Source of the DNA: Hafnia phage Enc34 | DNA: 60,496 nt | Sequence record: NC_019524.2 | Strand: one strand, 5' to 3' | Shown: positions 568 to 53,165 of the stretch, in pieces | Numbering within the stretch: the stretch's first letter is position 1 | Layout: the number at the start of each line of letters is the position of its first letter | Translations under genes and position numbers: made by a program | Notes under the pieces: model-generated | Seen by the model: only the letters and a program-made list of their open reading frames with translations | What the model was told of the DNA's origin: nothing | Database searches by the model: none

Positions 568-3162
568 TTAAACTTCGTCTTCATCGTCAAATGGATCATG
601 TGGCGTTCCATTCAATTTTTCTACGTCACTATCGTGTTTCTTTAAAGTTTGCTGAACCCATTTTGAGTTTAGTTTCCCCTTCTCATCGAATGCACCTCTA
701 ACGCGTTTTCGGATATAAGTACGACCCGTAATCCCGCCATAGCAGATCACGCCACCGGGTTTAAAACCTAACTCCATAAGGATGTTTTTGAGGCGATTTG
801 TTTTAGGCATTTCTACGTCACCTGCGAGGTCGATAAATGCGTCCCGTAAAGATGGTACGAAGATCACGTCACGATTCACGCCGGGGGCATTTAAGTCCCT
901 CAACATTTGCACGATAAGGCCATCAACCCCGTCATCCGATGCGTCCACCATAATGCTAAATGCTTCGGTGTCTTGCGGCGCATGTCCACGGTGGTTGAAT
1001 GATGGGCTAAACTCCCACTGCGTGAACCATAACTTGATTGCACGGGAGTGGTTTTCGATGGCCCGGTACACGTCTTTAAAGAATTTCTCACGTTCTTTAA
1101 CCGAACCGTACACGCGTTCCATGTCCAGATGGTTCTCTGCTTGAGTGGACACCACCAGATAACGGCGCTGGTTTTCGTCCAATGGCAAGGCGTTAAAGTG
1201 GTTGGTGAACATCATCTTGCTTGATGTGTTAATCACTTCTTTCGCTTTACGACCTTTCGGCTCCACCATGAATTCATCGTTGGAAATAAACTCTTTTTGG
1301 CGTTCGATAGCGCTGTATCGGTCGCCTTTATCGTAGATTTCCTCAATGACTTTCAGGATGTGACCTTCAGCCCAATCAGTGAAGCGACCGTTCATCACGG
1401 TATTTGATACGTAGCCGATGTTTACGCGGCCTAGCATTTTAGACATCAATACGCCAAGCGTTGTTTTACCCGAACCGTGCGCACCACGAATAAGTAATGA
1501 GTAGTTCATGCGTGATGTTGGGTTACAGATAACGTAGGCCATCCAATCCATGACATAGGTACGCTCTTTCGTGTCAGGGAACAGTACGACGAAGAAGTCT
1601 TTGATAATCTCAATGGCTTTTTTGTCCAACTTAGACAAGGTTTCGGCGGGTTCCGGTATCGACTCAGGGTCGAACGTGTTTAACCACATGCGGCCTTGGC
1701 GGTCATAGAAATATTCTGGCCCGAGAAGACCTTCTGCCTGTTTCCACTTAGATCCTGGCATGTCGCCATGCATTTCCGGGTAATACATCGCATCCCACAC
1801 CATCGGAACCTTATTAACCGTTGATGCGTACACAGATGGCTTGAATGACTCATCGTCAAACTTACATTTCTGTGCAAAAGCGGTGTCAAAAGCGCCTTTT
1901 GTGATGAGATCTCCGGTCGGTTTGTGGATAAATGCGTCGTTTGACTTGGAAAAAGCGAAGTCTTTTAACCACTCAGGCATCTCACGGGAGCCATAATCGA
2001 AGCCTAAATACTCCTTTTTCTCGGCAGCAGTCATGCGAAGACTTTCAAAAATACGGTATTTTTCGGCGGCAACCTTCACTACAGCCTTACGTAACGCGCC
2101 AAAAATCTGTGCTTTTCGGAAAGAATCAGCCCAAGAATACCAATCCACCATGTTTTCACACGACATGAACCCTTCTTTGAAGTCTACCGCTGCCGCCGCC
2201 GCTTCTTCGTACTCAATATCTTTGACGACTTTGATGATTGAGGCGATTGTGACCAGTGAACCTGACTTGTGGTCAAAACCTTTTTCCCACTTGAGGTCAA
2301 ATTCAGTTTCGTCGAAGTTGCTGGCCTGTTCCGACCATTCGCGTGCGATGGCATACGCCTCATCTTGGTCACGGCAGGAGATCTGCAGCGCGGCGATCAG
2401 GGTAATCCAGTTTTCGTAGTCTTCCGGGTTCGGGTACTTCATGACAAGCTCACGAAGTTCATCGTAAGTGCCATCCCAGCGAGTTATTGTCGCGGTAGCA
2501 GCCCAATCATCGTCGTCGGCAGCACCAATTTCTGCTGATTCTTGACCATTGAACGGACGCTTAACGCGAGTCCAACCCTGCAGCTCTGCATATCGGTCGA
2601 ATTCGGCGGTGATGAGTCGCGCACTATCTAGGCTTAACTCTTCAAGGTCTAAATCCGCGATATTGTTTTCCGGGCTGTCAACGCCAGTCCAGAAATACTC
2701 TTTTTTCGTTTCCGGGTGGACGCCGTAGGCCACGAATTGCTGACCATCTGCCAGAATTTCCACGGCATGACGTTGCCCAAAATCATCTTCCCAAACGCCA
2801 GATTTAACTTTCGAAAACGGCGTTTCGGCACGGTACAAAAACAGCTTCTTAGGCGCACGCCCGATACGACATGGAGCCAGACCAATGTTTGCCTCAACCC
2901 AATTCGACATGTGCTTCACGGCTTTTTCGTCGTAAACGTCAATATCGACCGCAGGGTTGTGTTTGGTCAGAATACCCATGCCATTATTTGTGTAGCGTTT
3001 GGCCCAACGTTCGATTTGCTCCTTAGTGTTGACTGTAGTTTCCCAATCTTCACCGATAGGTCGTTTACCAGCACCTTTCTTCTCGGCGTCCGGGGCGTAA
3101 ATTGGCACAATTGTGTACCCATTACCCCGAAGGATTTCACCGTAACGTTGCCAGAAATTCAT
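568..3162 (-). CDS. DNA primase-polymerase / D5-like SF3 helicase (864 aa)
   Basis: N-terminal prim-pol-like region and a central Walker A motif (GAHGSGKTT). The size and layout are typical of phage primase-helicases. The C-terminus ends DDEDEV. Confidence 0.75.
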   Translation of the reverse strand: MNFWQRYGEILRGNGYTIVPIYAPDAEKKGAGKRPIGEDWETTVNTKEQIERWAKRYTNNGMGILTKHNPAVDIDVYDEKAVKHMSNWVEANIGLAPCRIGRAPKKLFLYRAETPFSKVKSGVWEDDFGQRHAVEILADGQQFVAYGVHPETKKEYFWTGVDSPENNIADLDLEELSLDSARLITAEFDRYAELQGWTRVKRPFNGQESAEIGAADDDDWAATATITRWDGTYDELRELVMKYPNPEDYENWITLIAALQISCRDQDEAYAIAREWSEQASNFDETEFDLKWEKGFDHKSGSLVTIASIIKVVKDIEYEEAAAAAVDFKEGFMSCENMVDWYSWADSFRKAQIFGALRKAVVKVAAEKYRIFESLRMTAAEKKEYLGFDYGSREMPEWLKDFAFSKSNDAFIHKPTGDLITKGAFDTAFAQKCKFDDESFKPSVYASTVNKVPMVWDAMYYPEMHGDMPGSKWKQAEGLLGPEYFYDRQGRMWLNTFDPESIPEPAETLSKLDKKAIEIIKDFFVVLFPDTKERTYVMDWMAYVICNPTSRMNYSLLIRGAHGSGKTTLGVLMSKMLGRVNIGYVSNTVMNGRFTDWAEGHILKVIEEIYDKGDRYSAIERQKEFISNDEFMVEPKGRKAKEVINTSSKMMFTNHFNALPLDENQRRYLVVSTQAENHLDMERVYGSVKEREKFFKDVYRAIENHSRAIKLWFTQWEFSPSFNHRGHAPQDTEAFSIMVDASDDGVDGLIVQMLRDLNAPGVNRDVIFVPSLRDAFIDLAGDVEMPKTNRLKNILMELGFKPGGVICYGGITGRTYIRKRVRGAFDEKGKLNSKWVQQTLKKHDSDVEKLNGTPHDPFDDEDEV

Positions 3163-3509
3163 TCGCTGACTTCCCCGGTTTGCTCGTTAACTTTCATCCA
3201 TGCCGGATTTGTCAACCAATGAGGCTTGATACCGACGCCCGGTGCCACTTTGCAGATCGCCTCGGCTACCGTGGCGGATACGTTATTCTGAACGTTCCAT
3301 AATAGCGTCGGATATTTGATGCCAGCCGCCTCAGCTAAGTCACTCAGACGCCCTTCCTGACTAACTTCTAAGGCCGCAAGGCTCATAAGGTACTTCACTC
3401 TAAGCTGGTCAGACGATCTGGCCCACATTGGCAATCGCATTGTTATAACTCCCGTACATGTGCGTGTGTAAACTGGCAAAGTGTATGTCGGGTTGATACG
3501 CTTAGTCAA
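3159..3509 (-). CDS. small HTH-like putative regulator (true start may be an internal Met)
   Basis: Start/stop-coupled to the primase gene. It has a helix-turn-helix-like segment (SDLAEAAGIKYPTLLWNV) and is divergent from the 3600 promoter. Confidence 0.35.
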   Translation of the reverse strand: MTKRINPTYTLPVYTRTCTGVITMRLPMWARSSDQLRVKYLMSLAALEVSQEGRLSDLAEAAGIKYPTLLWNVQNNVSATVAEAICKVAPGVGIKPHWLTNPAWMKVNEQTGEVSE

Positions 3510-3599
3510 ATAATAGATTTATTCCCGGATAAGTGGTCAGCTAGTGCCTGACTTAAAAGGATTTACGGTACCCAAATAAAAATATTTCAAAAAAAGTGG

Positions 3600-3634
3600 T
3601 TGACGGGCAGATCGGCATCGCCCATAATCCATCT
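3600..3634 (+). promoter_or_regulatory. sigma70-like promoter (TTGACG-17 nt-CATAAT) for the rightward replication operon
   Basis: TTGACG at 3600-3605, a 17-nt spacer and CATAAT. It lies upstream of the 3681 gene in a divergent intergenic region. Confidence 0.5.
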
Positions 3635-3680
3635 CGTCAACACGACAACCTACTTAAACAACCGAACGGAGCAACAAATT

Positions 3681-4055
3681 ATGTCACAAGGTATCTTAGA
3701 AACTATCGCGGCTAACCAGACTCGCATCATCACTCTGCTGGAAGGTCTGCAACTGAACGCCCCGGCATCTTCTGACGCTGGCGAAACCGCCACTACCAAA
3801 ACCACCGCTAAAAAGAACACCAAGGCTAAAGCGGAAGAAAAGGTGAAGCCGACTCATACCAAAGATGAAGTCGTTGCAGCGGTAGTTGCGGTTAAAGACG
3901 CTTTCGGCGCTCCGGCAGCTAAAGCCATCACCGGACAATTCGGTCTTGCTAAAATCGCAGAAGCGAAAGAAGACCAGTTCGACGCTATCTTCGACGCATG
4001 TCAGGAAAAACTGGCAGAAGCGGATAACGACGCAGGCGAAGAAGAAGAAGTTTAA
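3681..4055 (+). CDS. small acidic protein ending EEEEV
   Basis: ATG preceded by an ACGGAG RBS. Ala/Lys/Glu-rich, with a C-terminal acidic EV tail. Confidence 0.5.
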   Translation: MSQGILETIAANQTRIITLLEGLQLNAPASSDAGETATTKTTAKKNTKAKAEEKVKPTHTKDEVVAAVVAVKDAFGAPAAKAITGQFGLAKIAEAKEDQFDAIFDACQEKLAEADNDAGEEEEV

Positions 4056-4072
4056 TCGCCTAAACGGTATTG

Positions 4073-4099
4073 CGGCTCCCTCCGGGGGGCCGTTTTTCT
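4073..4099 (+). terminator. intrinsic terminator-like hairpin plus T-tract
   Basis: CGGCTCCC tccg GGGGGCCG followed by TTTTT. Confidence 0.45.
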
Positions 4100-4110: not shown

Positions 4111-4434
4111 ATGAAAAAATTTCCTAAATTCAGCGTTATGACGGCGGGCGGAATGATCCCTGTAGTCACTTTTTCTGAATTCAGCCGTAACATCGGCGGT
4201 CTTGAGGTTCTTTTCAGAGTTACTTCGCCACTCAGCCCAAGCGTTGGAGCGTTAGTGTTAACCCACGTCGAAACAACGCGGCTAGTCGGTAAGGTGGAGT
4301 TTCTAGACATCGCGAAGACACGCGATAGCCTATTCGTAAATAATTATGAAAAGGCCGGGAATAGAGTTTTGAACCGAATATTAAGGGACGTTGGAGATGA
4401 TAGATTCGTCAAAGCCGTCAAAAGGTACTCGTAA
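4111..4434 (+). CDS. hypothetical protein (about 107 aa)
   Basis: ATG with an AGAGGTAGCT RBS. It overlaps the start of the downstream nuclease gene. Confidence 0.4.
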   Translation: MKKFPKFSVMTAGGMIPVVTFSEFSRNIGGLEVLFRVTSPLSPSVGALVLTHVETTRLVGKVEFLDIAKTRDSLFVNNYEKAGNRVLNRILRDVGDDRFVKAVKRYS

Positions 4435-5776
4435 AAGAAGTAAATCCCTGCTAACGCGGGTTATGCGAGAATTCGGATTTGGCAATCACTCCATTTTTGC
4501 CCCATCTGGATCGGCAATGTGGTTGGCCTGTTCTGGCAGCTTAATTGCCAATCTGTTCGAAGATGATGAAACGAGTTACGAGGCTGCAGAGGGCACCGTC
4601 GCTCACTCCATCGCAGAGCAGTGGTTAAAAACGGACAAACGACCTAACCATCTGGTCGGTACCACGATTAGCCTAACGGAGAATGGCGTTACGCATGACA
4701 TTTTAGTCACGCGCACAATGCTGGACTACCTGCAGGATTATGTCGACTGGTGCCGATTTGAAGAAGGGGAAATGTTCGTAGAGATAAAGGTTTGGTTCAC
4801 CGATTTGATGCCCCGGGCCAACCCGGACGCGCCAGACGAAGAACCCGAACCGTTCGTAAGGCAAGGCGGTACGGCGGACAACATCATCATTCGTGATCGC
4901 GTCCTGATCATTACCGACTTGAAGTACGGCGCGGGCGTTCAGGTCTTTGCAGAAGGTAATACCCAAGCATTGATTTACGCCTACGGAGCATGGAAAGCGT
5001 TTTGTGATGATTACGAGTTTGACCGGATAATCATACGAATCGCGCAGCCCCGGTTTGAACATTTCGACGTTTGGGAAGTTACCATCGACGAACTGCTAGA
5101 CTTTGCACGATATGTGAAAGAACGAGCAGCCGCAGCATGGCAGATTAAAGCGCCACGCAAAGCGACCTTAAAGGGTTGTCGTTGGTGCCGGGCAGCGCAG
5201 GATTGTTCAGCGATTGCCTATCTCATGGAATGTGCGGTCGGCGGCGATACGTACTTTCTGGATCAGGAATTCGGAGAGGACGAGATGAATGAGTTGCGAA
5301 GGGCGTTAGCGGAAGAGTATAAGATCCGCAGAGCGCAATTCGGAAACCTGACAACGGTTGAGATGGCAAAAATCCTCCCATACCGTAAAGTCATTGAGAA
5401 CTGGTTTGCCCGACTTGATTTCGAGTTGGAAAGCCGGGCACTCAAAGGCGAGAAGGTTCCCGGACAGAAGTTGGTGGAGTCCAGAACCAATAGGCAATTT
5501 AAAGATGCCGCAGAAGCACGCGAACATCTTTTATTCCTTGGCCTAACGGAAGAAGACATCACGATTTCTAAGATGATTTCCCCGGCGCAGGCCGAAGACA
5601 TCATCCGTGAGAAAATGGGAGTAAAGCGAGCCAATATTCCCGACTTAATAGCTAGTCAAGTCTTTAAGCCAGACGGAAAGCCTACCTTGGCCCCGCTGAC
5701 GGATAAGCGTCTACCAATCGACGGCAAATATAACGGTGCCTACGATGACGAAGACGAAGATGACGACGAAGTGTAA
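4397..5776 (+). CDS. PD-(D/E)XK (RecB/Cas4-like) nuclease with a C-terminal Cys cluster
   Basis: D...ITDLKYG motif and a CRWCRAAQDC cysteine cluster. Ends DEDEDDDEV. Confidence 0.6.
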   Translation: MIDSSKPSKGTRKRSKSLLTRVMREFGFGNHSIFAPSGSAMWLACSGSLIANLFEDDETSYEAAEGTVAHSIAEQWLKTDKRPNHLVGTTISLTENGVTHDILVTRTMLDYLQDYVDWCRFEEGEMFVEIKVWFTDLMPRANPDAPDEEPEPFVRQGGTADNIIIRDRVLIITDLKYGAGVQVFAEGNTQALIYAYGAWKAFCDDYEFDRIIIRIAQPRFEHFDVWEVTIDELLDFARYVKERAAAAWQIKAPRKATLKGCRWCRAAQDCSAIAYLMECAVGGDTYFLDQEFGEDEMNELRRALAEEYKIRRAQFGNLTTVEMAKILPYRKVIENWFARLDFELESRALKGEKVPGQKLVESRTNRQFKDAAEAREHLLFLGLTEEDITISKMISPAQAEDIIREKMGVKRANIPDLIASQVFKPDGKPTLAPLTDKRLPIDGKYNGAYDDEDEDDDEV

Positions 5777-5817: not shown

Positions 5818-6420
5818 ATGGCAGAGAAATTAGTCCCAGCTAAAAAAGTGAAGAACGGTGTCCTGTATAAATCTGGTCACATTAAGGTTTCAAACGTCCG
5901 TTGTTCATACCCGCATCTGGATAAGCCGTATGGAGGCGAAGACGGTGGTGAACCGAAGTATTCAATCACCCTGTTAATGCCAAAAGATACTCATGGCGCT
6001 ATCAAAAAGATCATTGATGAGCAGATTGAGTTGACTAAGAAGAACCACAAGACAGGAGCACTGAAAGTGGCCCCGTCCATGTTGTTCATCAAAGACGGTG
6101 ATGTCGATTTCCCTGACAAACCAGAATGCGAAGGGATGTGGGTAATTTCTGCGCGTGAAAGCACGCGTCCTGATGTCCTGAACATGGAGCGCGAAGAACT
6201 GGAAAGCCCTAACGAGATCGCGGAAGAGATCTACGGTGGTTGTTGGGTTTCTAGCGTTATTCGTCCATGGTCGCAGGAAAATAAATATGGCAAACGAATC
6301 AACGCCAACTTACTTTCTGTTCTGAAACGCAAAGACGACGAGCCATTCGGTGAAGGTCGTGTCGACACGTCTGATGCGTATGACGAAGATGAAGACGAGT
6401 GGGACGAAGACGAAGTTTAA
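5818..6420 (+). CDS. single-stranded DNA-binding protein, T7 gp2.5-like
   Basis: N-terminal pattern YPHLDKPY...KYSITLLMPKD resembles the gp2.5 OB-fold region. Long acidic C-terminal tail ending DEDEWDEDEV. Confidence 0.6.
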   Translation: MAEKLVPAKKVKNGVLYKSGHIKVSNVRCSYPHLDKPYGGEDGGEPKYSITLLMPKDTHGAIKKIIDEQIELTKKNHKTGALKVAPSMLFIKDGDVDFPDKPECEGMWVISARESTRPDVLNMEREELESPNEIAEEIYGGCWVSSVIRPWSQENKYGKRINANLLSVLKRKDDEPFGEGRVDTSDAYDEDEDEWDEDEV

Positions 6421-6449: not shown

Positions 6450-6480
6450 AAAGCCAGCCCGCAAAGCTGGCTTTCTTTTT
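6450..6480 (+). terminator. rho-independent terminator
   Basis: AAAGCCAGC ccgcaaa GCTGGCTTT followed by CTTTTT. Confidence 0.6.
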
Positions 6481-8521: not shown

Positions 8522-8809
8522 ATGCCAGAAGTCCTAATAAGGGAATCCAAGGTCGAAAAAGAGTCATGTGAGTATGCCATGGCTCTTGGCTGGTGGGTTT
8601 CCAAGTACACCGCGCCCGGCAAAAAAGCCGTTCCTGATAGACTGTTTATCCGGGACGGCATTGTCGTTTTCGTGGAATTCAAAAGACCGACTAAAGTCCC
8701 GACGCTGCAGCAGGTTTTACGACATAAGCAGATGCGGGAAAAGGGCGCTAACGTATTTTGGGTAGACAACTATGAAGACTTTAAAAAGCTCATTAAGTCC
8801 TTTATGTAA
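8522..8809 (+). CDS. VRR-NUC domain nuclease
   Basis: 95 aa with a VRR-NUC-like core (PDRLF...VEFKRP...LQ..Q). Confidence 0.65.
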   Translation: MPEVLIRESKVEKESCEYAMALGWWVSKYTAPGKKAVPDRLFIRDGIVVFVEFKRPTKVPTLQQVLRHKQMREKGANVFWVDNYEDFKKLIKSFM

Positions 8810-10334
8810 GGCAATCGCGGCAAGCCGTCGCAACGTTCAGTTGGAACGCGGTGATATGCATAGCTACCAGAATGAAGGTGTACAGTTCATAAAAGACCAT
8901 CCATTCTGCGCACTTTTCGTCGACCTTGGGCTAGGTAAGTCCGTTATGTCGGCAACTGCAGCACTTGATTTAATCGTGGAAGATGAGATTAAAAAGGTAC
9001 TCATCATTGGCCCGTCCCGCGTAATTCAGGCGGGGTGGCCTAACGAATTTAGTGAATGGGGGCACCTATGCTTCTACCACATGCAGGTTATCGCCGGGAC
9101 AGCGAAAGAACGACTGCGAGCGCTGCAGACGGATTGCCATTTCTACACGGTTAGCCGTGACAACATCGGTTGGCTGGTCGAGCACTACAAGACTAAATGG
9201 CCTTTCGACATGGTGATCATTGATGAGTCCAGTAACTTCAAGTCCCACACGTCACAGCGCTTCAAGTTGCTTCGCCGCGTGCGGAAATACATGACGCGAT
9301 TAGTGGAGTTAACGGCGACCCCGGCAGCAGAAGGTTACATGGGCATCTTCGCGCAGACGTACTTGTTAGACGGCGGCGACAGGTTCGGGCAAGCGATAAC
9401 GAAATACCAAGAGAACTATTTCATACAGAACCGCTATAACTTCAAATTCAAACTCCGTGACGGTGCGGAAAAAGAGATAACTCGCAAGATTTCTGATATA
9501 TGTTTAGTTATGAAAGCCGTTGACTACCTCGACATGGGTGAGCCACATTTTATCCGGGTTCCGGTGCCGATGGATCGGGAGACATCCGACCTATACGCGG
9601 TGATGGAAGAAGAGAGCGTCATGCAAGTCCTGCCGCCTGACTTTGATGAATATCTGGATGACCCGATAGTCATTGAGGCAGAGCAAGCGGCATCGCTGCA
9701 GGCCAAGTTGATGCAGATTGCCAGCGGCTTCGTTTATGACACTAAAATTGTTGGCCTGACTGCCGATGATAAGGTGATTAAGCAGAAAGACTGCTACCGA
9801 CTGCATGAACTGAAACTGGACGCGCTTGACGAGTTGATGAATAACGAGTTAGCCGATAAGAACGTTCTGATCGCCTATCACTTCCAGTCAACACTTGAGC
9901 GCTTCCAATCCCGGTTCCCGAAAGCGGTATTGATGGACAAAGAAGGTAAGTGCATCAAGAAGTGGAATGACGGAAAGATTAAGATGTTGGCAGCTCACCC
10001 GCAGTCAGCAGGGTATGGCCTGAACCTTCAAAGGGGTGGTCATGTGATTGTCTACCTAGACCATCCGTGGTCATTGGAACAGTTCTTACAGTTCAACGGT
10101 CGCATTCACCGCCAAGGCCAGAAAGAACCTGTACGAATTTACCAACTGTGCGCCACGCTGACGACGCCAAACGGTTCACAGGCGGAAACGGTCGACGATA
10201 CGGTCATAAAGGCGCTACGGGACAAAGAGGACGTACAGGATGCGTTCTTTGAACTGTTAGAAAGACTACGCGGCAAGTATGCCAAGAAACGTAAAACTAA
10301 AAAATCGGTGATATGGGATGACGAAGAAGATTGA
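8772..10334 (+). CDS. SNF2/DEAD-like helicase
   Basis: DLGLGKS Walker A, DESS motif II, QxxGR motif VI. Confidence 0.8.
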   Translation: MKTLKSSLSPLCKAIAASRRNVQLERGDMHSYQNEGVQFIKDHPFCALFVDLGLGKSVMSATAALDLIVEDEIKKVLIIGPSRVIQAGWPNEFSEWGHLCFYHMQVIAGTAKERLRALQTDCHFYTVSRDNIGWLVEHYKTKWPFDMVIIDESSNFKSHTSQRFKLLRRVRKYMTRLVELTATPAAEGYMGIFAQTYLLDGGDRFGQAITKYQENYFIQNRYNFKFKLRDGAEKEITRKISDICLVMKAVDYLDMGEPHFIRVPVPMDRETSDLYAVMEEESVMQVLPPDFDEYLDDPIVIEAEQAASLQAKLMQIASGFVYDTKIVGLTADDKVIKQKDCYRLHELKLDALDELMNNELADKNVLIAYHFQSTLERFQSRFPKAVLMDKEGKCIKKWNDGKIKMLAAHPQSAGYGLNLQRGGHVIVYLDHPWSLEQFLQFNGRIHRQGQKEPVRIYQLCATLTTPNGSQAETVDDTVIKALRDKEDVQDAFFELLERLRGKYAKKRKTKKSVIWDDEED

Positions 10335-10893
10335 TGCACCAATTGCGGCAGGAAGACGCCGCTCTAATGCCCCGGACGCAGATACCGAGGCCATGATTTT
10401 CCAAGGCTGCAATATCACGCAGATAGCCAAGCTGTTTCGCATGGAGCGCCGGGACATCACGCCGAAGATTATGGATGTGCCGCCGATTGGTGAACGTGGT
10501 GGCTATCCGATCTACGCGGTGCATGAGGTGGCCCCGTACTTAGTCAAACCGCTGTACGACGTAGAAACGTATCTGCGTCGTATGAATTTTAAGGATCTGC
10601 CGAAAGAGTTGTCGAAAGAGTTTTGGGCGGGCCAACGAGCCAAGCAGGACTTTGACATCAAGGCCGGAAACCTTTGGGAGACAGAAGACATCATTTCCCA
10701 TTTTGGTGAGGCGGTTAAGATCCTGCGCATGTCACTTCTGCTGATCCCGGATACGCTGGCGCGTCAGGCCGGGCTAACAGAAGCACAACGATCAGCCACA
10801 CAGTCTGCAATCGACGGCATTCTGAACGACTTAACAGATGCGCTTGTCGACCGATTCAAAGAAGACAAAGAGGCCGATGACGATGAAGTTTAA
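10318..10893 (+). CDS. terminase small subunit (putative)
   Basis: Lies immediately upstream of TerL and overlaps it. HTH-like N-terminal region. Ends ADDDEV. Confidence 0.5.
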   Translation: MTKKIDAPIAAGRRRSNAPDADTEAMIFQGCNITQIAKLFRMERRDITPKIMDVPPIGERGGYPIYAVHEVAPYLVKPLYDVETYLRRMNFKDLPKELSKEFWAGQRAKQDFDIKAGNLWETEDIISHFGEAVKILRMSLLLIPDTLARQAGLTEAQRSATQSAIDGILNDLTDALVDRFKEDKEADDDEV

Positions 10894-17738: not shown

Positions 17739-17800
17739 TAGCCCGCTAAATTGAAACCGCGACCTGCCCGTTATGGGTGGGTCGAATTGGAGAAGTGATT

Positions 17801-18085
17801 ATGCCAAAACGTAAAGTTATTCAGACCGTTATCCTGTACCGCAACGGCGAGCGTGTTAAGCCAGCAATCGGTTCTATCTTTGACTTCACCGCAGACGAAG
17901 TTAAACAGCTAGGCGAGATTGCACCGGAAGCGCTGGCCCGCCCGATCATGGAAGTGGACGTGGAAAACCTTGAAGCCCAAAAGAAAGCAGAAGCCGCTAA
18001 AGAAGAAGCGCCAGCCAAGGTAGAGGATAAAGCTACCAAAGGCGGCAAATCTACCAAAGGCAATGCTGCAGACGATGAAGTCTAA
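17801..18085 (+). CDS. hypothetical head-tail module protein ending ADDEV
   Basis: ATG with a GGAGAAG RBS. Lys/Glu/Ala-rich C-terminal half with an acidic EV tail. Confidence 0.45.
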   Translation: MPKRKVIQTVILYRNGERVKPAIGSIFDFTADEVKQLGEIAPEALARPIMEVDVENLEAQKKAEAAKEEAPAKVEDKATKGGKSTKGNAADDEV

Positions 18086-42056: not shown

Positions 42057-42358
42057 ATATCGCCTCGGTTATAGGCGTCTACATACACCTGATTTTCCGG
42101 TGAGCGGTCAACTTGGGTTAATTCTTTAAAATCACAGCTAATTACATCGCCGTTAGCCAGTTCAACTCGCCAGAAGACGTCATCATCCTTGAAGCCTGTT
42201 CTTACCACCTCAACCACCTTTCCGCAATACAGTCTGCCGTTATAGCGGTCTGTGAAGTGGATAGTATCGCCACGTATGGGCCAGTTCGGTGTGATCTTGG
42301 CGCGGTACTTCTTCAACATACCTGCTACGAATTCACGCATTAGATTTCCTCGCACCAT
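42053..42358 (-). CDS. hypothetical protein
   Basis: Start/stop coupled. Confidence 0.4.
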   Translation of the reverse strand: MVRGNLMREFVAGMLKKYRAKITPNWPIRGDTIHFTDRYNGRLYCGKVVEVVRTGFKDDDVFWRVELANGDVISCDFKELTQVDRSPENQVYVDAYNRGDI

Positions 42359-44941: not shown

Positions 44942-45985
44942 TTATACCTCGTTATCTTCGTCGTGGCGTTTAAGCCAGATTAACATTCCGGCAGTATAAT
45001 TGATTGCGCCGTACAACTCCCTTTCCTGCTGTTCAACGGTCGGCATATTTAGCGCCTCGGTGACTTTCTTGACTACCTGATAGGCCATGCCGCTGACCGA
45101 ACCTACTTGGTCGCTGATCACCTGCATACGTTGGCTTTCAAATGGATCGTCATTCGCGTGGCGCTCGCGACCCTTGCCATACGCGGCTTGATGTAGCGCA
45201 CCGAAAAGCACATCGCATAGTGACTGGTAGTTTTTCAGGTCGCGCGGGCTTGCAAACTCATACGACACGACCGGGCCATCGGGTTGCGCCATCGACGCAT
45301 ATTCAGATAATTCCTTAATCTTATCTAGTATCTGGCCCGCCGTAGTAGTGCCGCGATCCATGGATAGATAGTCACAAATGTCTTCTCGTAGACCACTCTT
45401 AGATTTCGACCCCGGCCCGAACCCCGTCATACTCCAATCATGGTGGTTAGCGAACATGAGATAGTTCATGGCATCCACGTAATTCCCCGCCCGGATGTGC
45501 TCACGGATACTCTGTTTACAACGACCCTCCCAATTTTCTGCCATCCATGCCAGTGGTGGGCGACCGTGCTCCCCATTAGCCAACGCTTTCAGCATTTCCG
45601 CTGCAGTGACCAAGAATAGCGAGAGTGTTTCGGAGTGCAGATGCGGCGCATCTTTAAGTAATTCTCGGTGGAATTTATAACTGGTATAGCAATCGGATAC
45701 GATGCCGGGTAGTTGGTGGTCTGGAACACTTTCAAAGGAGTCTTGTGCTGCCTCCACCGCAGCCATCCCAAGGGCTGAACGGATTTGAGAAAGTGTAACC
45801 TTCTGTTCTAAAGACGTTTTGTACATCTTCCTGATGTGGTCACATGCCGCCTGTGGTGGGACAACGCCAGTAATGCCGAGGTCATGGCGCAATGCTTCAA
45901 ATGCGTTAATCACATCAAGTGTAGGTGTTGCAGAGACAAGGCCGTCAACTTCGCCCGCGACCTTGGTGTAGGATTTACTAGTCAT
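44942..45985 (-). CDS. hypothetical 347-aa protein ending DEDNEV
   Basis: ATG preceded by GGGAG. Acidic EV C-terminus. Confidence 0.5.
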   Translation of the reverse strand: MTSKSYTKVAGEVDGLVSATPTLDVINAFEALRHDLGITGVVPPQAACDHIRKMYKTSLEQKVTLSQIRSALGMAAVEAAQDSFESVPDHQLPGIVSDCYTSYKFHRELLKDAPHLHSETLSLFLVTAAEMLKALANGEHGRPPLAWMAENWEGRCKQSIREHIRAGNYVDAMNYLMFANHHDWSMTGFGPGSKSKSGLREDICDYLSMDRGTTTAGQILDKIKELSEYASMAQPDGPVVSYEFASPRDLKNYQSLCDVLFGALHQAAYGKGRERHANDDPFESQRMQVISDQVGSVSGMAYQVVKKVTEALNMPTVEQQERELYGAINYTAGMLIWLKRHDEDNEV

Positions 45986-46062: not shown

Positions 46063-46767
46063 CTATATCTCATCCCACAATCTGATCCACGCCTGACGTT
46101 CTTCGTCGCTGATCTGTGCGAGCGGGCCACCCACTTCCATGAGGTATTCGCGTGAGATGTATTCGTTCGGCAGCACGCGGTCAGTAGCCGGGTCGAATAG
46201 CAGGATTGCCGCCCCGAACCCGGCACCGCATACCTCGCTAGACAACTCATCCGGGCGGTACCAGACAGGCGGCTCAAACCCAATGCGGCCTTTGATGAAG
46301 ATCGTCTTGGTCGCAATCTCGTCAGGCCACCAGCTTTCGGATGTCGCTGACTTCGTTAGCCAGATTGTCCCTGCGCCTTTCTTACGTTCCTCATCGGCCT
46401 TACGCATGATGTGGGTCATTCCGGTCAGTGGTTCCTTCCCGGCACGCTTCTGGCTGTATGGGGGGTTGGCAAAGCCCTTGCCTTGGATGTTGTATACATC
46501 GTCGAACCCCGGCAGACCTAGATTATCTATCTGTATTTCTGCCAGACGTGCTGCCCAATCTTGCTGCAGCGCGTTATCTTCCGCCGTAAAGAACCGTGGG
46601 CACTTGGAGTTCTGTCCATCGGTGAACAGGTCTAGCACGCATGGCCCGTACAGCTTATTAATCGCTTGGTACAACCATTCCGGTGTGCGCCATTGGTCGC
46701 CAATCTGCTTCGGGAGGTGCGTGCTCTCGGCTTTAAGTGCATTAAGGGCATTAACGTAATCCGACAT
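46063..46767 (-). CDS. phage Dam-family DNA N6-adenine methyltransferase
   Basis: N-terminal QWRTPEWLY and the catalytic NPPYS motif. Confidence 0.7.
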   Translation of the reverse strand: MSDYVNALNALKAESTHLPKQIGDQWRTPEWLYQAINKLYGPCVLDLFTDGQNSKCPRFFTAEDNALQQDWAARLAEIQIDNLGLPGFDDVYNIQGKGFANPPYSQKRAGKEPLTGMTHIMRKADEERKKGAGTIWLTKSATSESWWPDEIATKTIFIKGRIGFEPPVWYRPDELSSEVCGAGFGAAILLFDPATDRVLPNEYISREYLMEVGGPLAQISDEERQAWIRLWDEI

Positions 46768-48349: not shown

Positions 48350-48955
48350 TCATTTACCTTTTACGATATTTCGGAAAACAAGCGGGCTAACGACGTTGTA
48401 AGGCGATATTTCGTTAGCCCGGGCGATGACGCTAGGGTTCAACTCAACGCGCGGAGCACGCCCGGTGCAGTATTCATCCATTCGATGTAACCGCATGACC
48501 GTTACCACAAATACTGAATCCCATAGCAGCTTTTCCGCGAAACCTAGCGCCTGACTTTCCCCGAACGCGTAGACAATGAACCCCGTAGTACCGCAGTCGC
48601 TGATCAGGTAAGCTACTGGCTTCTCTAACATCTCATCTAAGAAACGCGTATCTACCGGGACAACCGGGAGTGAATGTATAGCCGGGTCAAAGCTATACTG
48701 GAACCGCCCGGTTGGGCTTGGTGGCACCTGTCCACGCTTAAATCGACTATTCCTGTCCCGTGGTAAATTCTGCAGGTTTCCCACATAACCGCCAGCCCAC
48801 CGTGCCTTGATTTGTCCGCCCCACTTAGCCGGGGCGCGTTCTTCGGTGCATTCTGGTGGGTCGATGTCATTCATGTCCCACGCCTTTCCGCAGTAAGTAC
48901 AGATGGCCTGATCCGACATCTGCAGAATCTCTTTGTGGCCCTTTGGGTTTTCCAT
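48350..48955 (-). CDS. hypothetical protein with N-terminal CxxC
   Basis: 201 aa, coupled to its neighbours. Confidence 0.4.
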   Translation of the reverse strand: MENPKGHKEILQMSDQAICTYCGKAWDMNDIDPPECTEERAPAKWGGQIKARWAGGYVGNLQNLPRDRNSRFKRGQVPPSPTGRFQYSFDPAIHSLPVVPVDTRFLDEMLEKPVAYLISDCGTTGFIVYAFGESQALGFAEKLLWDSVFVVTVMRLHRMDEYCTGRAPRVELNPSVIARANEISPYNVVSPLVFRNIVKGK

Positions 48956-49698
48956 TAGATCTCCACGTCTTCTTCAAGTAATACTCGGAATGCATCGCCA
49001 CGGGTTTTATAGCCCTGCCATACGTCAACGATAAGCGCACCTTTGAACGCCCGGTTGAAACAGTTGTAGATCATCGCCCACGACATGTCCGGTTGGTTTG
49101 TCCCGACACCGCCAGTCGGACTATCCCAATTACGCGGAGCGATGGTCAGGTGGCGCAGGATTGGTTTAGGCTTGGCATACGGGTTAATCATGCCAATTCT
49201 CGCAAGCCCTCGGCACAGCCACGCCCTTTGCCACCAAATATCGGTACGAGTGCCACCGGATTCCAATTCGCTCGTTAGAATCGGGCACAGGATGAGCGCG
49301 GTGGTGCTGCCAGCCGGGGCAGGTGCGCCAAGATCCCAAAAGTCATTCAGGTGTTTCGCAAGGTTCTTACTGGAACCGTCATTCTTCGCATCGGTGTTCG
49401 CGTCGTATAGGATCATGTCGAACGTCAATTCAGGGAACGAGGTCTGTTTGCCGTTGGTCGTGTACTTCGGGTTCGGCTCGTTAAACATGGCGGTGTATAG
49501 CTCAAGCAGCGCGGCTTCAATGTCTGGCAGGAATCCTTGGATGTCGGCGTCTTTCGGTAGCATCTGCAGGTGCATGGTCACGCTAATGCCGTCACACGTC
49601 GCATAGCAGCGCGGGCCGTTGGGCAGCGGGAAGATGTAGATAGGCATTTTACCTATCAGGCTTTGGTCAAACTTAACGAAGGGGGCGAGTGGTTTCAC
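48955..49698 (-). CDS. hypothetical 247-aa protein
   Basis: AGGAGA RBS. It is the first gene after the 49730 promoter. Confidence 0.5.
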   Translation of the reverse strand: MKPLAPFVKFDQSLIGKMPIYIFPLPNGPRCYATCDGISVTMHLQMLPKDADIQGFLPDIEAALLELYTAMFNEPNPKYTTNGKQTSFPELTFDMILYDANTDAKNDGSSKNLAKHLNDFWDLGAPAPAGSTTALILCPILTSELESGGTRTDIWWQRAWLCRGLARIGMINPYAKPKPILRHLTIAPRNWDSPTGGVGTNQPDMSWAMIYNCFNRAFKGALIVDVWQGYKTRGDAFRVLLEEDVEI

Positions 49699-49758: not shown

Positions 49759-49772
49759 CGCTTTTATTCAGA

Positions 49773-49810: not shown

Positions 49811-49901
49811 GGAAAGCGTGGTTAGCGACACCACTGGCAACAAGGATTGGAAAGCACACGCCAATAGCTACTGCAACAACTACGGAAGTGATATGAGTAC
49901 A

Positions 49902-50177: not shown

Positions 50178-50444
50178 CTAGCGTGCCTCTGTATTTCCGG
50201 TTGCTGCCACGGTACCGTAGTCTGCCTGACGCATGACGCGGGTACCCATTTTCCCGTAGATCTGGTCTTCCAAGACGAACCGAATTGATAAGCGGATATT
50301 GAGTTTATACCCAAGGCGGCGGACGTACTTTAAGTCGCTAGGCTTGACACCTTCGATAAAGAACGACTCGCCTACCTTCATTTCTGACATCAGCTTTTCA
50401 TGCTTGGCCTTGTAATCCTCAGTCGTTGGGGTTGCCATCATCAC
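50178..50444 (-). CDS. hypothetical protein
   Basis: 88 aa. Confidence 0.4.
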   Translation of the reverse strand: MMMATPTTEDYKAKHEKLMSEMKVGESFFIEGVKPSDLKYVRRLGYKLNIRLSIRFVLEDQIYGKMGTRVMRQADYGTVAATGNTEAR

Positions 50445-51508
50445 ACCTCGTCATCTTCTTCGAGTGAGCCAGTGATCTCCGCCAGCATACTCACATCGTT
50501 AAAGCGGGCCATAAGCGCGGATAGGCTCTTATCCATCATGAACAGGTTAGCCATAAGCGTGAGGAAACTCGCCCCGTCGTTCTGGTAGTTCTCAAGCGTG
50601 GCATCATAGTTAGCGTCGACGTCCGCATCACCGATGTGGATACCCGTCAGGATGGCTTTGTCTGTCAGGCGGAAGAACATGTTTTCCAGACCTGCAGTCT
50701 TCAATGCGACCGCCATATCCAACGCACGCGGTGTATAGGACTGCGAGATCAGCTCATCGACATGTTCGTTCCCTAAGATGGCGACGTCTTTAAATTTAAC
50801 GTCCTCGCCGTCGTCATGCTTCATGTGAACGAAGTCAGTCGCGTTAAACTCATTGTGCTCACGGCGGATAACCTGACGCATGAACAGGCGCAGTGAATAC
50901 TCATCAATCAGCGCATGTTCGACCGGGAAGGTGCCGAATGCTTTACGGATCAGCGCGGTGCAGTTCTCGCCAACCTTGGCGCTTGAGGTGAACACATAGA
51001 CATACGGCATTGAGATTAACACCGGGATGCGGTTCGGGCGGATAGGCGCGAATTTCAGCATTTCCGCTTCGACTTCTTCTTTCAGTTGCGCCCAATCTTT
51101 GCGGGTCGGCGTCCATCCATCCACTTCTTTCGCGATTAGCTTTTCCATGCGCTTAGTCACGGCGTTGCGTACCGATACGCCCGGCAGCACACGTTCACGC
51201 TTCTCAATCTGGATCAGGAAAGCGGTGGTGCCCGGCACCTGCAGACAGAATGAATTGTTTAACTCATCGCCGTTCGCCACAAATCCCATGGTGCTGTAAC
51301 ACGCTTCCGGTGGGTCGCTCACTTCTAGCTCGGACAGCGCATTAGATAGGGTGGTGCTGGCAAACTTAAACGCCGCTTCTTCTGACATGTTCGGGGAGTT
51401 GAGCAGCATACGCAGCAGCGGAGTTATAGTCTCTTCGCCATCGTTGGCCTTGTCGTACAGTGATCCCAAGTGCAGCGGGATTAGCTTTTCAAAGTTTTTT
51501 ACTTTCAT
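50441..51508 (-). CDS. RdgC-like recombination-associated protein
   Basis: Collinear similarity to RdgC (KRERVLPGVSVRNAVTKRMEKL, SSAKVGENCTALIRKAFGTFPV). Ends EEDDEV. Confidence 0.55.
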   Translation of the reverse strand: MKVKNFEKLIPLHLGSLYDKANDGEETITPLLRMLLNSPNMSEEAAFKFASTTLSNALSELEVSDPPEACYSTMGFVANGDELNNSFCLQVPGTTAFLIQIEKRERVLPGVSVRNAVTKRMEKLIAKEVDGWTPTRKDWAQLKEEVEAEMLKFAPIRPNRIPVLISMPYVYVFTSSAKVGENCTALIRKAFGTFPVEHALIDEYSLRLFMRQVIRREHNEFNATDFVHMKHDDGEDVKFKDVAILGNEHVDELISQSYTPRALDMAVALKTAGLENMFFRLTDKAILTGIHIGDADVDANYDATLENYQNDGASFLTLMANLFMMDKSLSALMARFNDVSMLAEITGSLEEDDEV

Positions 51509-51860
51509 TGCGGATTGCCTCAATGTTGATTAGGTCAGTTAGGTGGCCTTTGAACTGGCTAAGGCTCACATGGATAAGGGCACAGCGGATGTTCTCACGC
51601 GCGGCCTGAATGGATGCCAACGTCTGCGCTTGATTGCGGCTCAACGCGTCGTACTTCCCGGTGAGATCTTCGGTTGGGTCGATTTGCTCTGCCATACGCG
51701 GCATTAAATCGTTGAACGCGGCTTCGTAGTAGTCGGTTGCATCCTTTTCCAAATCGTTTAGCCATGCTTCCAGTGCCGTAAACTTCGACAAGCCTTGATC
51801 TAAACGTACATAGCGCAGTTCGCGGTTCTCTGCGTCGAGTGTAGATATGCGCTTGGTCAT
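51489..51860 (-). CDS. hypothetical coiled-coil protein
   Basis: 123 aa. Confidence 0.4.
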   Translation of the reverse strand: MTKRISTLDAENRELRYVRLDQGLSKFTALEAWLNDLEKDATDYYEAAFNDLMPRMAEQIDPTEDLTGKYDALSRNQAQTLASIQAARENIRCALIHVSLSQFKGHLTDLINIEAIRNESKKL

Positions 51861-52204: not shown

Positions 52205-52631
52205 TTAAAGGTTCCTCCGTCAGCGTGTACTCAATCAGGCCGACTTTATTTGCGTTAATGGTAACTTGGGGCGCGTCTTCGCGCAGGATGCGGTCAGTGG
52301 TTATGACAGCGGTTTTCAGGCCATTCTCATACATCAGGTTAGCGATGCAGGTAACGGCAAACTGTTCGACAAACGATTCATGGCGTGCATCGCTCATGTC
52401 CAACAGCAAGGCCAGTTCAGCGGAGCGATCCGGGATGTCAAAGGCTTCACGCAGCCCGGCGATGAGTGCTACCGCATCTTCTTTGGTTATGTGTTTCAGT
52501 TCACCGACGACATCATCATCAGCTTCAATGCTCACCACAGCGGTTCGGGATTTAGCGTTATAGTAGATAAGCCCTGAACGGTCGTAGCCGCCGATACTGC
52601 TTAGGGTCATAGGGTGTTCTGTGTTTTTCAT
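52179..52631 (-). CDS. hypothetical protein
   Basis: 150 aa. Confidence 0.4.
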   Translation of the reverse strand: MKNTEHPMTLSSIGGYDRSGLIYYNAKSRTAVVSIEADDDVVGELKHITKEDAVALIAGLREAFDIPDRSAELALLLDMSDARHESFVEQFAVTCIANLMYENGLKTAVITTDRILREDAPQVTINANKVGLIEYTLTEEPLNVKDPTNA

Positions 52632-52708
52632 GTGCTCAAATCCTATGGATAGGGTGGTAGGGGTGAAAAGGGTGGTACGCCCAAAAACGGGCGTGCCGTC
52701 CTACAGAT

Positions 52709-53092
52709 TTACACTTCGTCGTCGTCGTCCACGCCAGCTTCAAGGCATGTGACCACAACCTGAATGAACATACGGCCTGACGGGTAGGTGATCAGCGCGG
52801 ACTCCATGCTGAACTTCTGCCCATGGTGGCGCATGGCATTGCGGATGGATGAGTTAAGGCTGGAACGGATCTTGGACTTCAAACCATTGGCATCGGCCTG
52901 TGCCTGCGCAAGTGTGACGTCGCCTGCCATCTCAAGTGATAGCGTGTACACTTCGCCCGGCTTCAACGCGATGAGGTTCCCGGCTACGCTGTGTGGGCGG
53001 ACGCGTGATGGCAGTTCAACGTCAGACTCGCACGTCATCATTGCTGCCGTAAGGTTGTCAGGGTATGGCTGATTGGTAGTCTTTGTAGTCAT
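52709..53092 (-). CDS. small protein ending DDDDEV (first gene of the leftward early operon)
   Basis: ATG at 53092 with an AGGAG RBS, directly downstream of the 53137 promoter. Confidence 0.5.
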   Translation of the reverse strand: MTTKTTNQPYPDNLTAAMMTCESDVELPSRVRPHSVAGNLIALKPGEVYTLSLEMAGDVTLAQAQADANGLKSKIRSSLNSSIRNAMRHHGQKFSMESALITYPSGRMFIQVVVTCLEAGVDDDDEV

Positions 53093-53136
53093 CTGGATGG
53101 CTCCTGCATTCGGTATATCTCGCATGTAATTGGCAA

Positions 53137-53165
53137 ACAATAGTGCTACATGCCGCGTATGTCAA
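53137..53165 (-). promoter_or_regulatory. conserved-spacer sigma70-like promoter (leftward)
   Basis: Minus-strand TTGACA-TACGCGGCATGTAGCAC-TATTGT. Confidence 0.55.

Follow-up and report, generated by a model that had tools for sequence, protein, structure and literature searches.

The C-terminal tail of bacterial SSB, which in E. coli reads DFDDDIPF, organises many genome-maintenance enzymes around ssDNA, and in phage T4 the C-terminal peptides of gp43, gp33 and gp55 dock on the sliding clamp gp45 and couple replication with another late function. Autoinhibitory tails have been described for T7 gp2.5, E. coli SSB and T4 gp32. In phage T7 the tails contact basic patches of the polymerase, and that of gp2.5 also fills the basic groove of its own protein (PMC12339929). 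The SSB of phage Enc34 (ORF6) is a structural homologue of T7 gp2.5 with acidic side chains at 16 of its last 29 residues; in the crystal its tail lies in the concave β-sheet of a neighbouring molecule, and upon deletion of 21 tail residues the protein binds dsDNA (PMC5686142).

We find that this SSB is one of nine Enc34 proteins with a common type of C-terminus. Enc34 is a Chi-like Hafnia/Enterobacter phage of the Casjensviridae, and in the window analysed here, its complete genome of 60,496 nucleotides (NC_019524.2), an acidic run followed by -E-V forms the C-terminus of nine genes, all of them present as ORFs. The original prediction had listed these nine, and both coordinates and translated tails were confirmed for every one; the list was nevertheless incomplete, having missed three genes with an -E-I ending and the SNF2 helicase, which features a related tail. 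In the literature searched we found no prior description of such a tail system. The tails are as follows, with protein labels checked against Pfam and PHROGs and the last three lines giving the possible or related cases:

571..588, minus strand: DDEDEV, primase-helicase (gene 568-3162), the tail being preceded by P-F
4035..4052, plus strand: GEEEEV, Enc34 gp4, 124 aa (gene 3681-4055)
5747..5773, plus strand: DEDEDDDEV, DUF2800 PD-(D/E)XK-type exonuclease (gene 4391-5776)
6382..6417, plus strand: DEDEDEWDEDEV, gp2.5-like SSB, Enc34 ORF6 (gene 5818-6420)
10876..10890, plus strand: DDDEV, small terminase subunit TerS, DUF1441 (gene 10318-10893)
18071..18082, plus strand: DDEV (ADDEV), head-module protein gp18, DUF7443 (gene 17777/17801-18085)
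44945..44962, minus strand: DEDNEV, 347-aa protein, phrog_8209 (gene 44942-45985)
50444..50461, minus strand: EEDDEV, RdgC-like protein, RdgC by Pfam/PHROGs (gene 50441-51523)
52712..52729, minus strand: DDDDEV, 143-aa DUF7609 protein (gene 52709-53140)
46066..46077, minus strand: WDEI, Dam-type DNA methyltransferase, possible client (gene 46063-46767)
48958..48975, minus strand: EEDVEI, 247-aa protein, possible client (gene 48955-49698)
10311..10331, plus strand: IWDDEED, SNF2 helicase, related tail without the hydrophobic end (gene 8772-10334)

The third -E-I ending, CEEI, belongs to gene 42340-43032. The primase-helicase combines Prim-Pol, PriCT_2 and DUF5906 (SF3 type) domains (Pfam/PHROGs), and the SSB matches Pfam Enc34_ssDNA-bd and the PHROG 'Gp2.5-like', with no secondary structure predicted beyond residue 172. 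An aromatic residue (A-Y) stands ahead of the DUF2800 exonuclease tail, the gp18 gene directly follows the major capsid gene in the position of lambda gpFI, and the true start of Enc34 gp4 is the ATG at 3681, the TTG at 3600 belonging, as the -35 hexamer, to a promoter-like site (3600-3628).

The shared tail is real and far beyond chance. Among 475 six-frame ORFs of at least 35 aa, the EV end occurs in the nine ORFs only; nine such ends in 84 genes compare with 0.33 expected from the window's own amino-acid composition (P(≥9) = 5.6e-11), and for [DE][DE]EV ends the expectation on the same basis is 0.0045 (P(≥8) = 2.7e-24). Within proteins, [DE][DE]EV has a single occurrence in 19,428 positions, where 1.03 would be expected, so the enrichment is specific to the C-terminus. 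In the same analysis T7 yielded two such tails, the known DEDGDF of gp2.5 and NDTDF of gp4, and lambda none in which three of the four residues ahead of a hydrophobic end are acidic. Lambda Gam ends in DIDSEV, which is weakly acidic. The original prediction had staked itself on the tails being rarer in other phages and retained in close relatives: they are not as frequent in these two controls as in Enc34, and they are kept in the relatives described below.

A signal or artefact at the nucleotide level, be it a Shine-Dalgarno GAGGT, a terminator or recombination boundary, gene conversion or compositional chance, is so improbable as to be nearly negligible. GAG GTx does stand directly before the next start codon in two of the nine tails (44942 and 50441), and in 17777-18085 (GAA GTC TAA TT ATG) the spacing between the last two codons and the next ATG would suit a Shine-Dalgarno sequence, but GAA GTx is used in seven of the nine, four tails are followed by terminators or long spacers, the internal motif is unenriched, and chance alone has a probability of about 6e-11. 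Terminator-like hairpins lie at 550-529, just past the primase-helicase tail, and at 6450-6474, downstream of the SSB tail. Across the family Val, Ile and Leu appear in every one of their synonymous codons, each of the three stop codons occurs, and the DNA downstream of the tails is unrelated, from which we conclude that selection acts on the amino acid or peptide. A translational-coupling Shine-Dalgarno signal, defined as a nucleotide-conserved GGAGG/GAGGT core 5-10 nt before the next start codon, was rejected, GAGGT occurring in only two of nine tails and the codons and stops varying in relatives.

Comparison with 58 IMG/VR loci and several isolates reveals acidic tails family-wide on the same orthologues, namely the prim-pol/SF3 helicase, gp4, the DUF2800 exonuclease and the gp2.5-like SSB, as well as on the SNF2 helicase, TerS, head-module gp18 and RdgC orthologues, while Dam/methyltransferase, PAPS-reductase-like and ParB-like proteins carry them in some lineages. 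Phage Chi, at about 75% nucleotide identity, features eight -EV tails and one -DV tail on orthologues of Enc34 clients, including ADDDEV on gp62, the DUF7609 orthologue. Chi gp51, the orthologue of the 44942-45985 protein, is without a tail, so this client is inconstant even inside the Chi clade. The primase-helicase orthologues end in -EV (Chi), -DDL (MA12, SS2019XI) or -GDI (A18P4), those of gp18 in AEDEV (Chi), EEEL (MA12), DDGEL (JS26) or DNDEI (A18P4), and those of RdgC in DDDEV (Chi), DDEL (MA12), DDDL (SS2019XI), DDGEI (A18P4) or EDDM (E21), and the V, I or L end of the DUF2800 exonuclease likewise tracks lineage. Among 120 SSB homologues the last residue is L in 71, I in 32, V in 10, M in 2 and F in 1; among 150 representatives of the TerS family (50% identity clustering), L is the last residue in 102, and an acidic run plus a hydrophobic end is present in 97. 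The possible clients show comparable endings: WDEI of Dam is identical in Chi gp52, the A18P4 methyltransferase ends in QDEEI, Chi gp55, the counterpart of the 48955-49698 protein, ends in GEVEI, and the SNF2 helicase has a full tail in other lineages (DDDEL in MA12, EDDDI in A18P4). The -E-V definition given in the original prediction is hence valid for the Chi clade but too narrow for the family, where the motif takes the form [acidic run]-[V/I/L/F/M]-COOH.

Strikingly, the last residue is uniform per genome and differs among lineages (58 IMG/VR loci, several isolates), being V in the Chi clade, L in most lineages, I in two clades and F or M in a few. The agreement inside genomes amounts to 0.805, versus 0.335 ± 0.027 when residues are shuffled inside each protein family, and none of 20,000 permutations reached the observed value. 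A tree computed from core sequences stripped of their tails shows no fewer than three concerted switches: the V clade, its sister I clade, and a second I clade (A18P4/L033) that is nested beside all-L genomes and ends in I in six of six locus proteins and, genome-wide in Aeromonas phage A18P4, in 11 proteins. An independent, distant V lineage (contig L067), with an SSB 39% identical to that of Enc34 and a primase nearer to the L lineages, carries the V end in 10 of 14 genes, even on non-acidic C-termini. V, I and L are one nucleotide apart, yet they stay unmixed over deep divergence, as in the homologue clusters of Enc34 gp4, where 118 of 120 end in V and two in I. Mixed genomes exist (F and I in L057; F on the primase and L elsewhere in L031 and L038; M, F and I in E21; M and L in L073), and Enc34 and Chi retain three -EI tails, so the specificity is not absolute. 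The Phe end is confined to few relatives (JC01, L057, the L031/L038 primase and E21), and TerS and the helicase of E21 are without a tail.

Concerted switching across unrelated proteins, which a shared and co-evolving reader would predict, points at the level of sequence to one shared docking partner. We give slightly better than even chances to a model where a tail of the T7 gp2.5/gp4 kind has been extended to about ten clients as a short docking motif at the C-terminus, co-evolving with a shared partner that is probably phage-encoded. Docking on a host hub instead, with the tails imitating a host motif such as the DDDIPF of SSB so as to recruit or block its readers, is unlikely. The primase ending PFDDEDEV does resemble E. 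coli SSB DFDDDIPF in layout, but the -PF ending is absent from the tails, and these are lineage-specific even though the host SSB tail (IPF) is, to our knowledge, essentially invariant across these hosts. Hosts moreover overlap: E. coli and close relatives are infected by phages with V, M/F/I and F tails, E. coli itself by both Chi with its V and E21 with its M/F/I ends, and Serratia is host to JS26 (L) and to the Chi-like Smarc5, whose V tail is taken from close similarity rather than read directly. The presence of different tails on the same hosts argues against a host-determined pocket.

In the favoured phage-encoded docking model, the motif would consist of a flexible acidic stretch, in many cases with an aromatic residue ahead of it, and of a single aliphatic end residue whose carboxylate is free. 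It is carried by some ten proteins that have no other relationship and whose roles on phage DNA span replication, recombination, DNA modification and packaging. All tails would insert into grooves of one type, basic and furnished with a small hydrophobic pocket, on one partner or very few, most likely phage-encoded, and this pocket would dictate which last residue a lineage accepts (V for Enc34 and Chi; L, I, F or M for the others). The T7 case suggests two prime candidate receptors, the DNA polymerase (6493-8520), a distant family A enzyme, and the SSB (5818-6420) with the concave groove of its OB-fold. The tail would then serve as an address label that gathers these enzymes, or passes them on, where phage DNA is replicating or covered with SSB and, if this is true, links replication and recombination with packaging. 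AF2 assigns the last two blocks of the SSB tail pLDDT values of 70 and 58, versus about 44 (below 50) for the Enc34 gp4 tail, and these predictions are compatible with an SSB groove able to hold such a tail, as reported for T7 gp2.5 (PMC12339929). The deletion and crystal data on ORF6 (PMC5686142) provide an experimental precedent from Enc34 itself. A search for alignment columns that track the tail residue, covering the polymerase, SSB core, primase, exonuclease, helicase, TerS, TerL, portal and others, returned no cluster above control lineage pairs. The TerS tail might instead bind TerL, by analogy with lambda, where the Nu1 C-terminus binds gpA; there would in that case be more than one receptor. 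The common hub-binding peptide of the original prediction thus gains strong if indirect support from tails that are conserved, selected as peptides and switched in concert, while the hub itself, that is the existence and identity of a common receptor and what recruitment to it would bring about, is what we infer.

The same tails could in principle be independent autoinhibitory DNA mimics, each folding onto the DNA-binding surface of its own protein with no common receptor. Nearly all clients bind or process DNA, the SSB tail is partly ordered by AF2, the acidic runs vary freely in length and composition with insertions and deletions, and removal of the SSB tail unmasks dsDNA binding (PMC5686142). 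Such mimicry nonetheless leaves unexplained the same last residue on unrelated folds and its joint switches in several lineages, as well as the V end on non-acidic C-termini of L067, and for Enc34 gp4 the prediction is of a free tail, not a docked one; we consider it fairly unlikely, though it deserves some weight.

The original prediction had also offered a degron, and for this we find no support, the acidic tails being unlike known C-degrons. Bacterial AAA+ and tail-specific proteases do read C-terminal residues with a free carboxylate, a feature of these tails, and a shared protease or protective factor that sets when early, middle and late proteins turn over would also yield concerted evolution. 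Known E. coli C-degrons, however, carry non-polar (ssrA LAA) or basic (MuA RRKKAI) residues, and an acidic C-terminus generally stabilises a protein; neither -LAA nor -RRKKAI is found on the Enc34 tails, which consist of 60-100% Asp/Glu plus a terminal aliphatic residue. The clients furthermore include the stoichiometrically needed SSB and the late TerS and gp18, tail types overlap in hosts, and no cytoplasmic tail-reading protease and no domain of PDZ/TPR type was detected by Pfam in the 44 proteins scanned, a set made up of early and non-structural ORFs together with the tail-bearing proteins. In the related contigs L069 and L073 the orthologue of the protease carries an S49 peptidase annotation. 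Altogether, a C-terminal stability signal is very unlikely.

Set against described systems, the Enc34 tails share with the eukaryotic class III PDZ ligands ([DE]-x-hydrophobic-COOH) and the eukaryotic, TPR-read EEVD the use of a last residue with a free carboxylate and acidic residues upstream; those systems serve many unrelated clients per reader type, and the likeness is one of logic only, no PDZ or TPR domain being detected by Pfam in the 44 early, non-structural and tail-bearing Enc34 proteins scanned. The T4 gp45 peptides offer a similar single-hub logic, one C-terminal peptide on functionally different phage proteins, but the clamp motif is hydrophobic (SLDFLF type) where the Enc34 tails are acidic, and no clamp gene is recognisable among these 44 Enc34 proteins. 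With the E. coli SSB tip (DFDDDIPF) the tails share their layout, in which an acidic run follows an aromatic residue and leads to a hydrophobic C-terminus. The Enc34 SSB is, however, a monomeric or dimeric gp2.5-type OB-fold rather than a homotetramer, its C-terminus is not -D-D-D-I-P-F, and no -IPF or -PF ending occurs among the tails examined in Enc34, its relatives and SSB homologues; the polarity is also reversed, in that bacterial SSB offers one tail to pockets on more than 12 enzymes, whereas in Enc34 the enzymes bear the tail. T7 gp2.5 and gp4 come closest, with a disordered acidic tail, a single hydrophobic end residue and a free carboxylate, and with the tail placed on a gp2.5-like SSB and a replicative primase-helicase (PFDDEDEV in Enc34). 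The analogy with T7 drawn in the original prediction is accordingly apt for the SSB, whose C-terminus is disordered and strongly acidic, but goes less far for the other partners: the tailed helicase-primase of Enc34 is of the Prim-Pol and SF3 type and not a gp4 homologue, and its distant family A polymerase has no detectable similarity to T7 gp5 in a PDB sequence search. Finally, T7 has two clients and a Phe end, whereas in Enc34 all nine tails end in the aliphatic Val, with lineage-specific alternatives in relatives, and the clients number nine to twelve, including TerS, the head-module protein, RdgC and Dam.

Among the 475 open reading frames of at least 35 residues in the six frames of Enc34, nine and only nine end in -E-V, all of them named in the original prediction and each with the acidic run that it had described in front of the terminal pair. 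Its list was thus correct but slightly incomplete, as three genes ending in -E-I and a SNF2 helicase had been left out. The genes encoding tail-bearing proteins, hereafter clients, are as follows; the three -E-I proteins are possible further clients, and the helicase bears a related tail that lacks the hydrophobic end.

Tail-bearing genes of Enc34
568-3162, minus strand: primase-helicase with Prim-Pol, PriCT_2 and DUF5906 (SF3-type) matches (Pfam/PHROGs); -E-V
3681-4055: gp4, tail carrier; -E-V
4391-5776: DUF2800 nuclease; -E-V
[quoted passage not shown]
10318-10893: DUF1441 small terminase subunit (TerS); -E-V
17801-18085: gp18, DUF7443, directly 3' of the major capsid gene in the position of lambda gpFI; -E-V
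44942-45985: 347-residue protein, tail DEDNEV
50441-51523: RdgC-like protein; -E-V
52709-53140: DUF7609 protein; -E-V
42340-43032: -E-I protein, end CEEI
46063-46767: Dam methyltransferase, -E-I end WDEI
48955-49698: -E-I protein, end EEDVEI
8772-10334: SNF2 helicase, end IWDDEED

Given the amino-acid composition of 84 non-overlapping genes of the window, only 0.33 EV ends are expected (probability of at least nine, 5.6e-11) and only 0.0045 ends of the form [DE][DE]EV (probability of at least eight, 2.7e-24). Internally the latter motif is found once in 19,428 residues, against 1.03 expected, so that the enrichment is specific to the C terminus and no general property of the proteome. Under the same analysis T7 yields its two known tails only, those of gp2.5 (...DEDGDF) and gp4 (...NDTDF), and lambda features no tail of comparable acidity, with Gam ending in DIDSEV. 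The composition statistics and these two controls together rule out chance or composition as the source of the tails. The acidic run differs in length from tail to tail and shows insertions and deletions; an aromatic residue often stands in front of it (PF-DDEDEV, AY-DDEDEDDDEV, W-DEDEV, IW-DDEED).

Explanations at the nucleotide level are excluded. A Shine-Dalgarno signal, with E-V written as GAG GTx, fits two tails only, the other seven using GAA GTx, and four tails precede terminators or long spacers. Family-wide, the last position is encoded by GTT (12), GTG (9), GTA (3) and GTC (1) for valine, by ATC (11), ATT (6) and ATA (5) for isoleucine, and by CTG (26), CTT (7), CTA (5), TTA (5), CTC (3) and TTG (1) for leucine, followed by TAA (68), TGA (18) or TAG (14), and the DNA 3' of the tails is unrelated among family members. 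As every synonymous codon and all three stops are in use and the downstream sequences are unrelated, selection acts on the peptide, and neither a Shine-Dalgarno sequence nor any other DNA-level signal accounts for it.

After the SSB, the most constant tail carrier is gp4, which is 100% identical to Enc34 F418_p02. Its start is better placed at ATG 3681, as predicted, since TTG 3600 belongs to a promoter match (10/12), as part of its -35 hexamer; this strong sigma-70-like match (TTGACG-17-CATAAT, 3600-3628) lies just upstream of the gene. Likewise, in the longer reading frame of gp18 similarity to DUF7443 starts only at residue 9, and a start at about 17801 is the better placed one. For gp4 the model predicts a helix near the N terminus (residues 4-25) and a C-terminal domain of three helices (61-120), connected by a disordered stretch rich in T, K and A. 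A fold search of gp4 against the PDB returned no significant match; the UniRef label 'RecT protein' is supported neither by its size (124 residues) nor by its predicted fold. Terminator-like hairpins directly follow the tail-encoding ends of gp4 (4072-4093), the SSB (6450-6474) and the primase (550-529).

Conservation in relatives, on which the prediction had been staked beforehand, holds well outside Enc34, with the same orthologues tailed in Salmonella phage Chi and in distant Casjensviridae. Enc34 is itself one of the Chi-like phages (Casjensviridae). Its replication and head region shares about 75% nucleotide identity with Chi and its relatives, and the Chi proteins end in DDEDEV (gp2), EEDDV (gp4), DDDDEV (gp6), WEDEV (gp7), DDDEV (gp11, gp58 and gp62) and AEDEV (gp18). 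The client set varies even inside the Chi clade: the PAPS-reductase-like gp42 (42230-43129 in L001; FEDDEV) is an extra client with no Enc34 orthologue, and the 44942-45985 protein, tailed in Enc34, has a Chi orthologue, gp51, that ends in ...NPPKE.

Across the family, the last residue changes in concert. Tails end in -[DE]-L throughout in Pectobacterium phage MA12, Pseudomonas phage SS2019XI and Serratia phage JS26, in F in Cronobacter phage JC01, and in M, with some I and F, in E21-like phages. In Aeromonas phage A18P4, where I ends 15 of 70 proteins overall, acidic tails ending in -I are found on eleven: primase, gp4, exonuclease, SSB, helicase, TerS, gp18, RdgC, methyltransferase, a PAPS-reductase-like protein and a 71-residue protein. 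The same lineage pattern is seen in a matrix of six orthologue families by 58 IMG/VR loci. Agreement of terminal residues within genomes reaches 0.805 (28 representative genomes), and shuffling among genomes within each protein family lowers it to 0.335 +/- 0.027, with none of 20,000 shuffles attaining the observed value. Although a single base change can turn V, I and L into one another, V is the last residue in 118 of 120 gp4 clusters from the V clade. Among 120 homologues of the SSB the last residue is L in 71, I in 32, V in 10, M in 2 and F in 1, and among 150 representatives of TerS (clustering at 50% identity) it is L in 102.

In a neighbour-joining tree of the exonuclease, SSB and helicase cores without their tails, the V clade is monophyletic and has an I clade as its sister, and a second all-I clade adjoins all-L genomes; L, the state most often seen, is probably ancestral. 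Some five independent switches can be counted in all. A 13,375-bp Logan contig (SRR22868772), here L067, is an independent V lineage: 10 of its 14 genes end in V, its SSB is 39% identical to that of Enc34, and its primase is nearer to the L lineages. These genes use all four valine codons and all three stops, and the contig's non-acidic C termini can also end in V (SRFKV, DVRRV, WPPDV). What counts most in this lineage seems to be the terminal residue, more so than the acidic run.

We propose that the tails are a shared docking motif that brings the clients to one phage-encoded partner, or reader. A lineage-specific last residue that switches jointly and repeatedly in unrelated proteins is what is expected if the same pocket reads all tails and co-evolves with them. 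The common hub-binding peptide of the original prediction thus gains strong, if indirect, support from the concerted switching, and from this we infer a single common reader, although there may be two or more, for instance TerL for TerS. Independent autoinhibitory DNA mimicry, in which each tail would serve its own protein, accounts for the acidity but leaves the concerted last residue unexplained. The alternative originally offered, that the tail is a degron, fits poorly with the chemistry of the tails and with the kinds of protein that carry them. Docking on a host hub is also disfavoured, as the tip of the host SSB is invariant and phages with different tail types overlap in their hosts: E. 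coli is infected by both Chi (V) and E21 (M/F/I), and Serratia hosts JS26 (L tails) as well as the Chi-like Smarc5, whose V tail is presumed from close similarity. Because of these shared hosts, the reader of a common docking motif is more likely encoded by the phage than by the host.

The prime suspects for such a reader are the polymerase and the SSB groove. Three residue-association scans, for columns common to both I clades and absent from neighbouring L genomes, for columns common to the two independent V lineages, and for columns changing in all four sister contrasts, gave few matches per protein and no cluster above control lineage pairs. Three residues of the primase SF3 domain, adjacent to conserved helicase motifs (R593, H655 and T673; region of residues ~586-683, nt ~1114-1405, minus strand) are present in the Chi clade and L067 and absent from the L and I lineages, even though the L067 SF3 domain is nearer to the L lineages; R593 precedes a conserved Phe and H655 follows a T-N motif. 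As a reader signal the trio was rejected as not significant, since control clade or genome pairs gave equal or higher counts, and it may be a coincidence. Pfam searches limited to the tail-bearing proteins, the polymerase and the reading frames of the early region, minus strand and right arm detected no domain of the PDZ, TPR, clamp, ATP-grasp ligase or cytoplasmic protease kind.

As the 60,496-base window is the whole genome of Hafnia/Enterobacter phage Enc34, published crystal and tail-deletion work (PMC5686142) concerns gene 5818-6420 itself: removal of the 21-residue tail endows the SSB with double-stranded DNA binding, and in the crystal the tail sits in the concave beta-sheet of an adjacent molecule (PMC5686142). 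AlphaFold2 models show partial order in the tail of the SSB (pLDDT 70/58) but not in that of gp4 (~44), values that carry no contact information; they are compatible with an SSB groove able to hold such a tail, suggestive rather than proof.

TerL (10838-12961) and the polymerase (6493-8520), with their orthologues in L001-L073, are never acidic-tailed and have strongly conserved C termini of their own, [LF]A-x-x-[LM]A in TerL (LAAILA in Enc34, LAMALA in Chi, FAEALA elsewhere) and F/Y-Y-R-K-D in the polymerase. None of the proteins of the right-arm block (53830-59961) carries an acidic tail; its roughly 17 small plus-strand reading frames have a G+C content of 0.45-0.47, against about 0.52 elsewhere, and a single Pfam match, DUF5983 at 58361-58699. 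The orthologue of the Chi tape-measure protein gp25 (1431 residues) is split in Enc34 into 21513-22259, 22337-24610 and 24666-25805, in different frames, and that of the large tail protein gp30 (1296 residues) into 28807-30867 and 30935-32689; the C-terminal ends of both match those of Chi, and the splits reflect frameshift errors in the database record or else are genuine interruptions.

In its fullest form, which we put forward tentatively and would not call probable as it stands, the proposal is a genome-wide C-terminal 'address code' of Casjensviridae, where one phage-encoded reader recognizes some 10-14 acidic-tailed proteins by a lineage-specific last residue. Candidates for this reader include the polymerase and, in an assembly or condensate of SSB with DNA, the SSB groove; the code would assemble replication, recombination, DNA-modification and packaging enzymes on the phage's own DNA. 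Reader and tails would co-evolve as one lock with many keys, and the code could stop co-infecting relatives from using each other's machinery. If so, a physical link between replication and packaging is implied in a large and little-studied phage family, and a one-residue code switched jointly several times would be one of nature's rare experiments on how short linear motifs co-evolve with their readers. The hypothesis is directly testable in this phage, whose SSB has already been crystallized, and the tail offers a simple marker for DNA-metabolism proteins among the many unknown reading frames of these phages.

The original prediction did not recognize the tails as a described system, and our full-text search of the literature agrees: what is already known is the SSB tail, the only one discussed in the Enc34 SSB paper (PMC5686142), and neither the multi-protein tail, which the Chi genome paper does not mention, nor its lineage-specific code was found anywhere in the literature searched. 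The closest known mechanism is that of the T7 replisome, where gp2.5 and gp4 each have an acidic tail with a terminal Phe that docks on basic patches of the polymerase, and where the gp2.5 tail can also fill the protein's own basic DNA-binding groove (PMC12339929). The tails of Casjensviridae are carried by about ten unrelated proteins and extend beyond replication to recombination (RdgC and the exonuclease), DNA methylation, the terminase and a protein of the head module. Replisomes classically use such acidic C termini, as in T7 gp2.5 and gp4, bacterial SSB and T4 gp32, and for a T7 gp2.5 deprived of its terminal Phe the suppressors mapped to gene 5. The tails of Casjensviridae extend this T7- and SSB-type device across functional modules and feature a co-evolving specificity.
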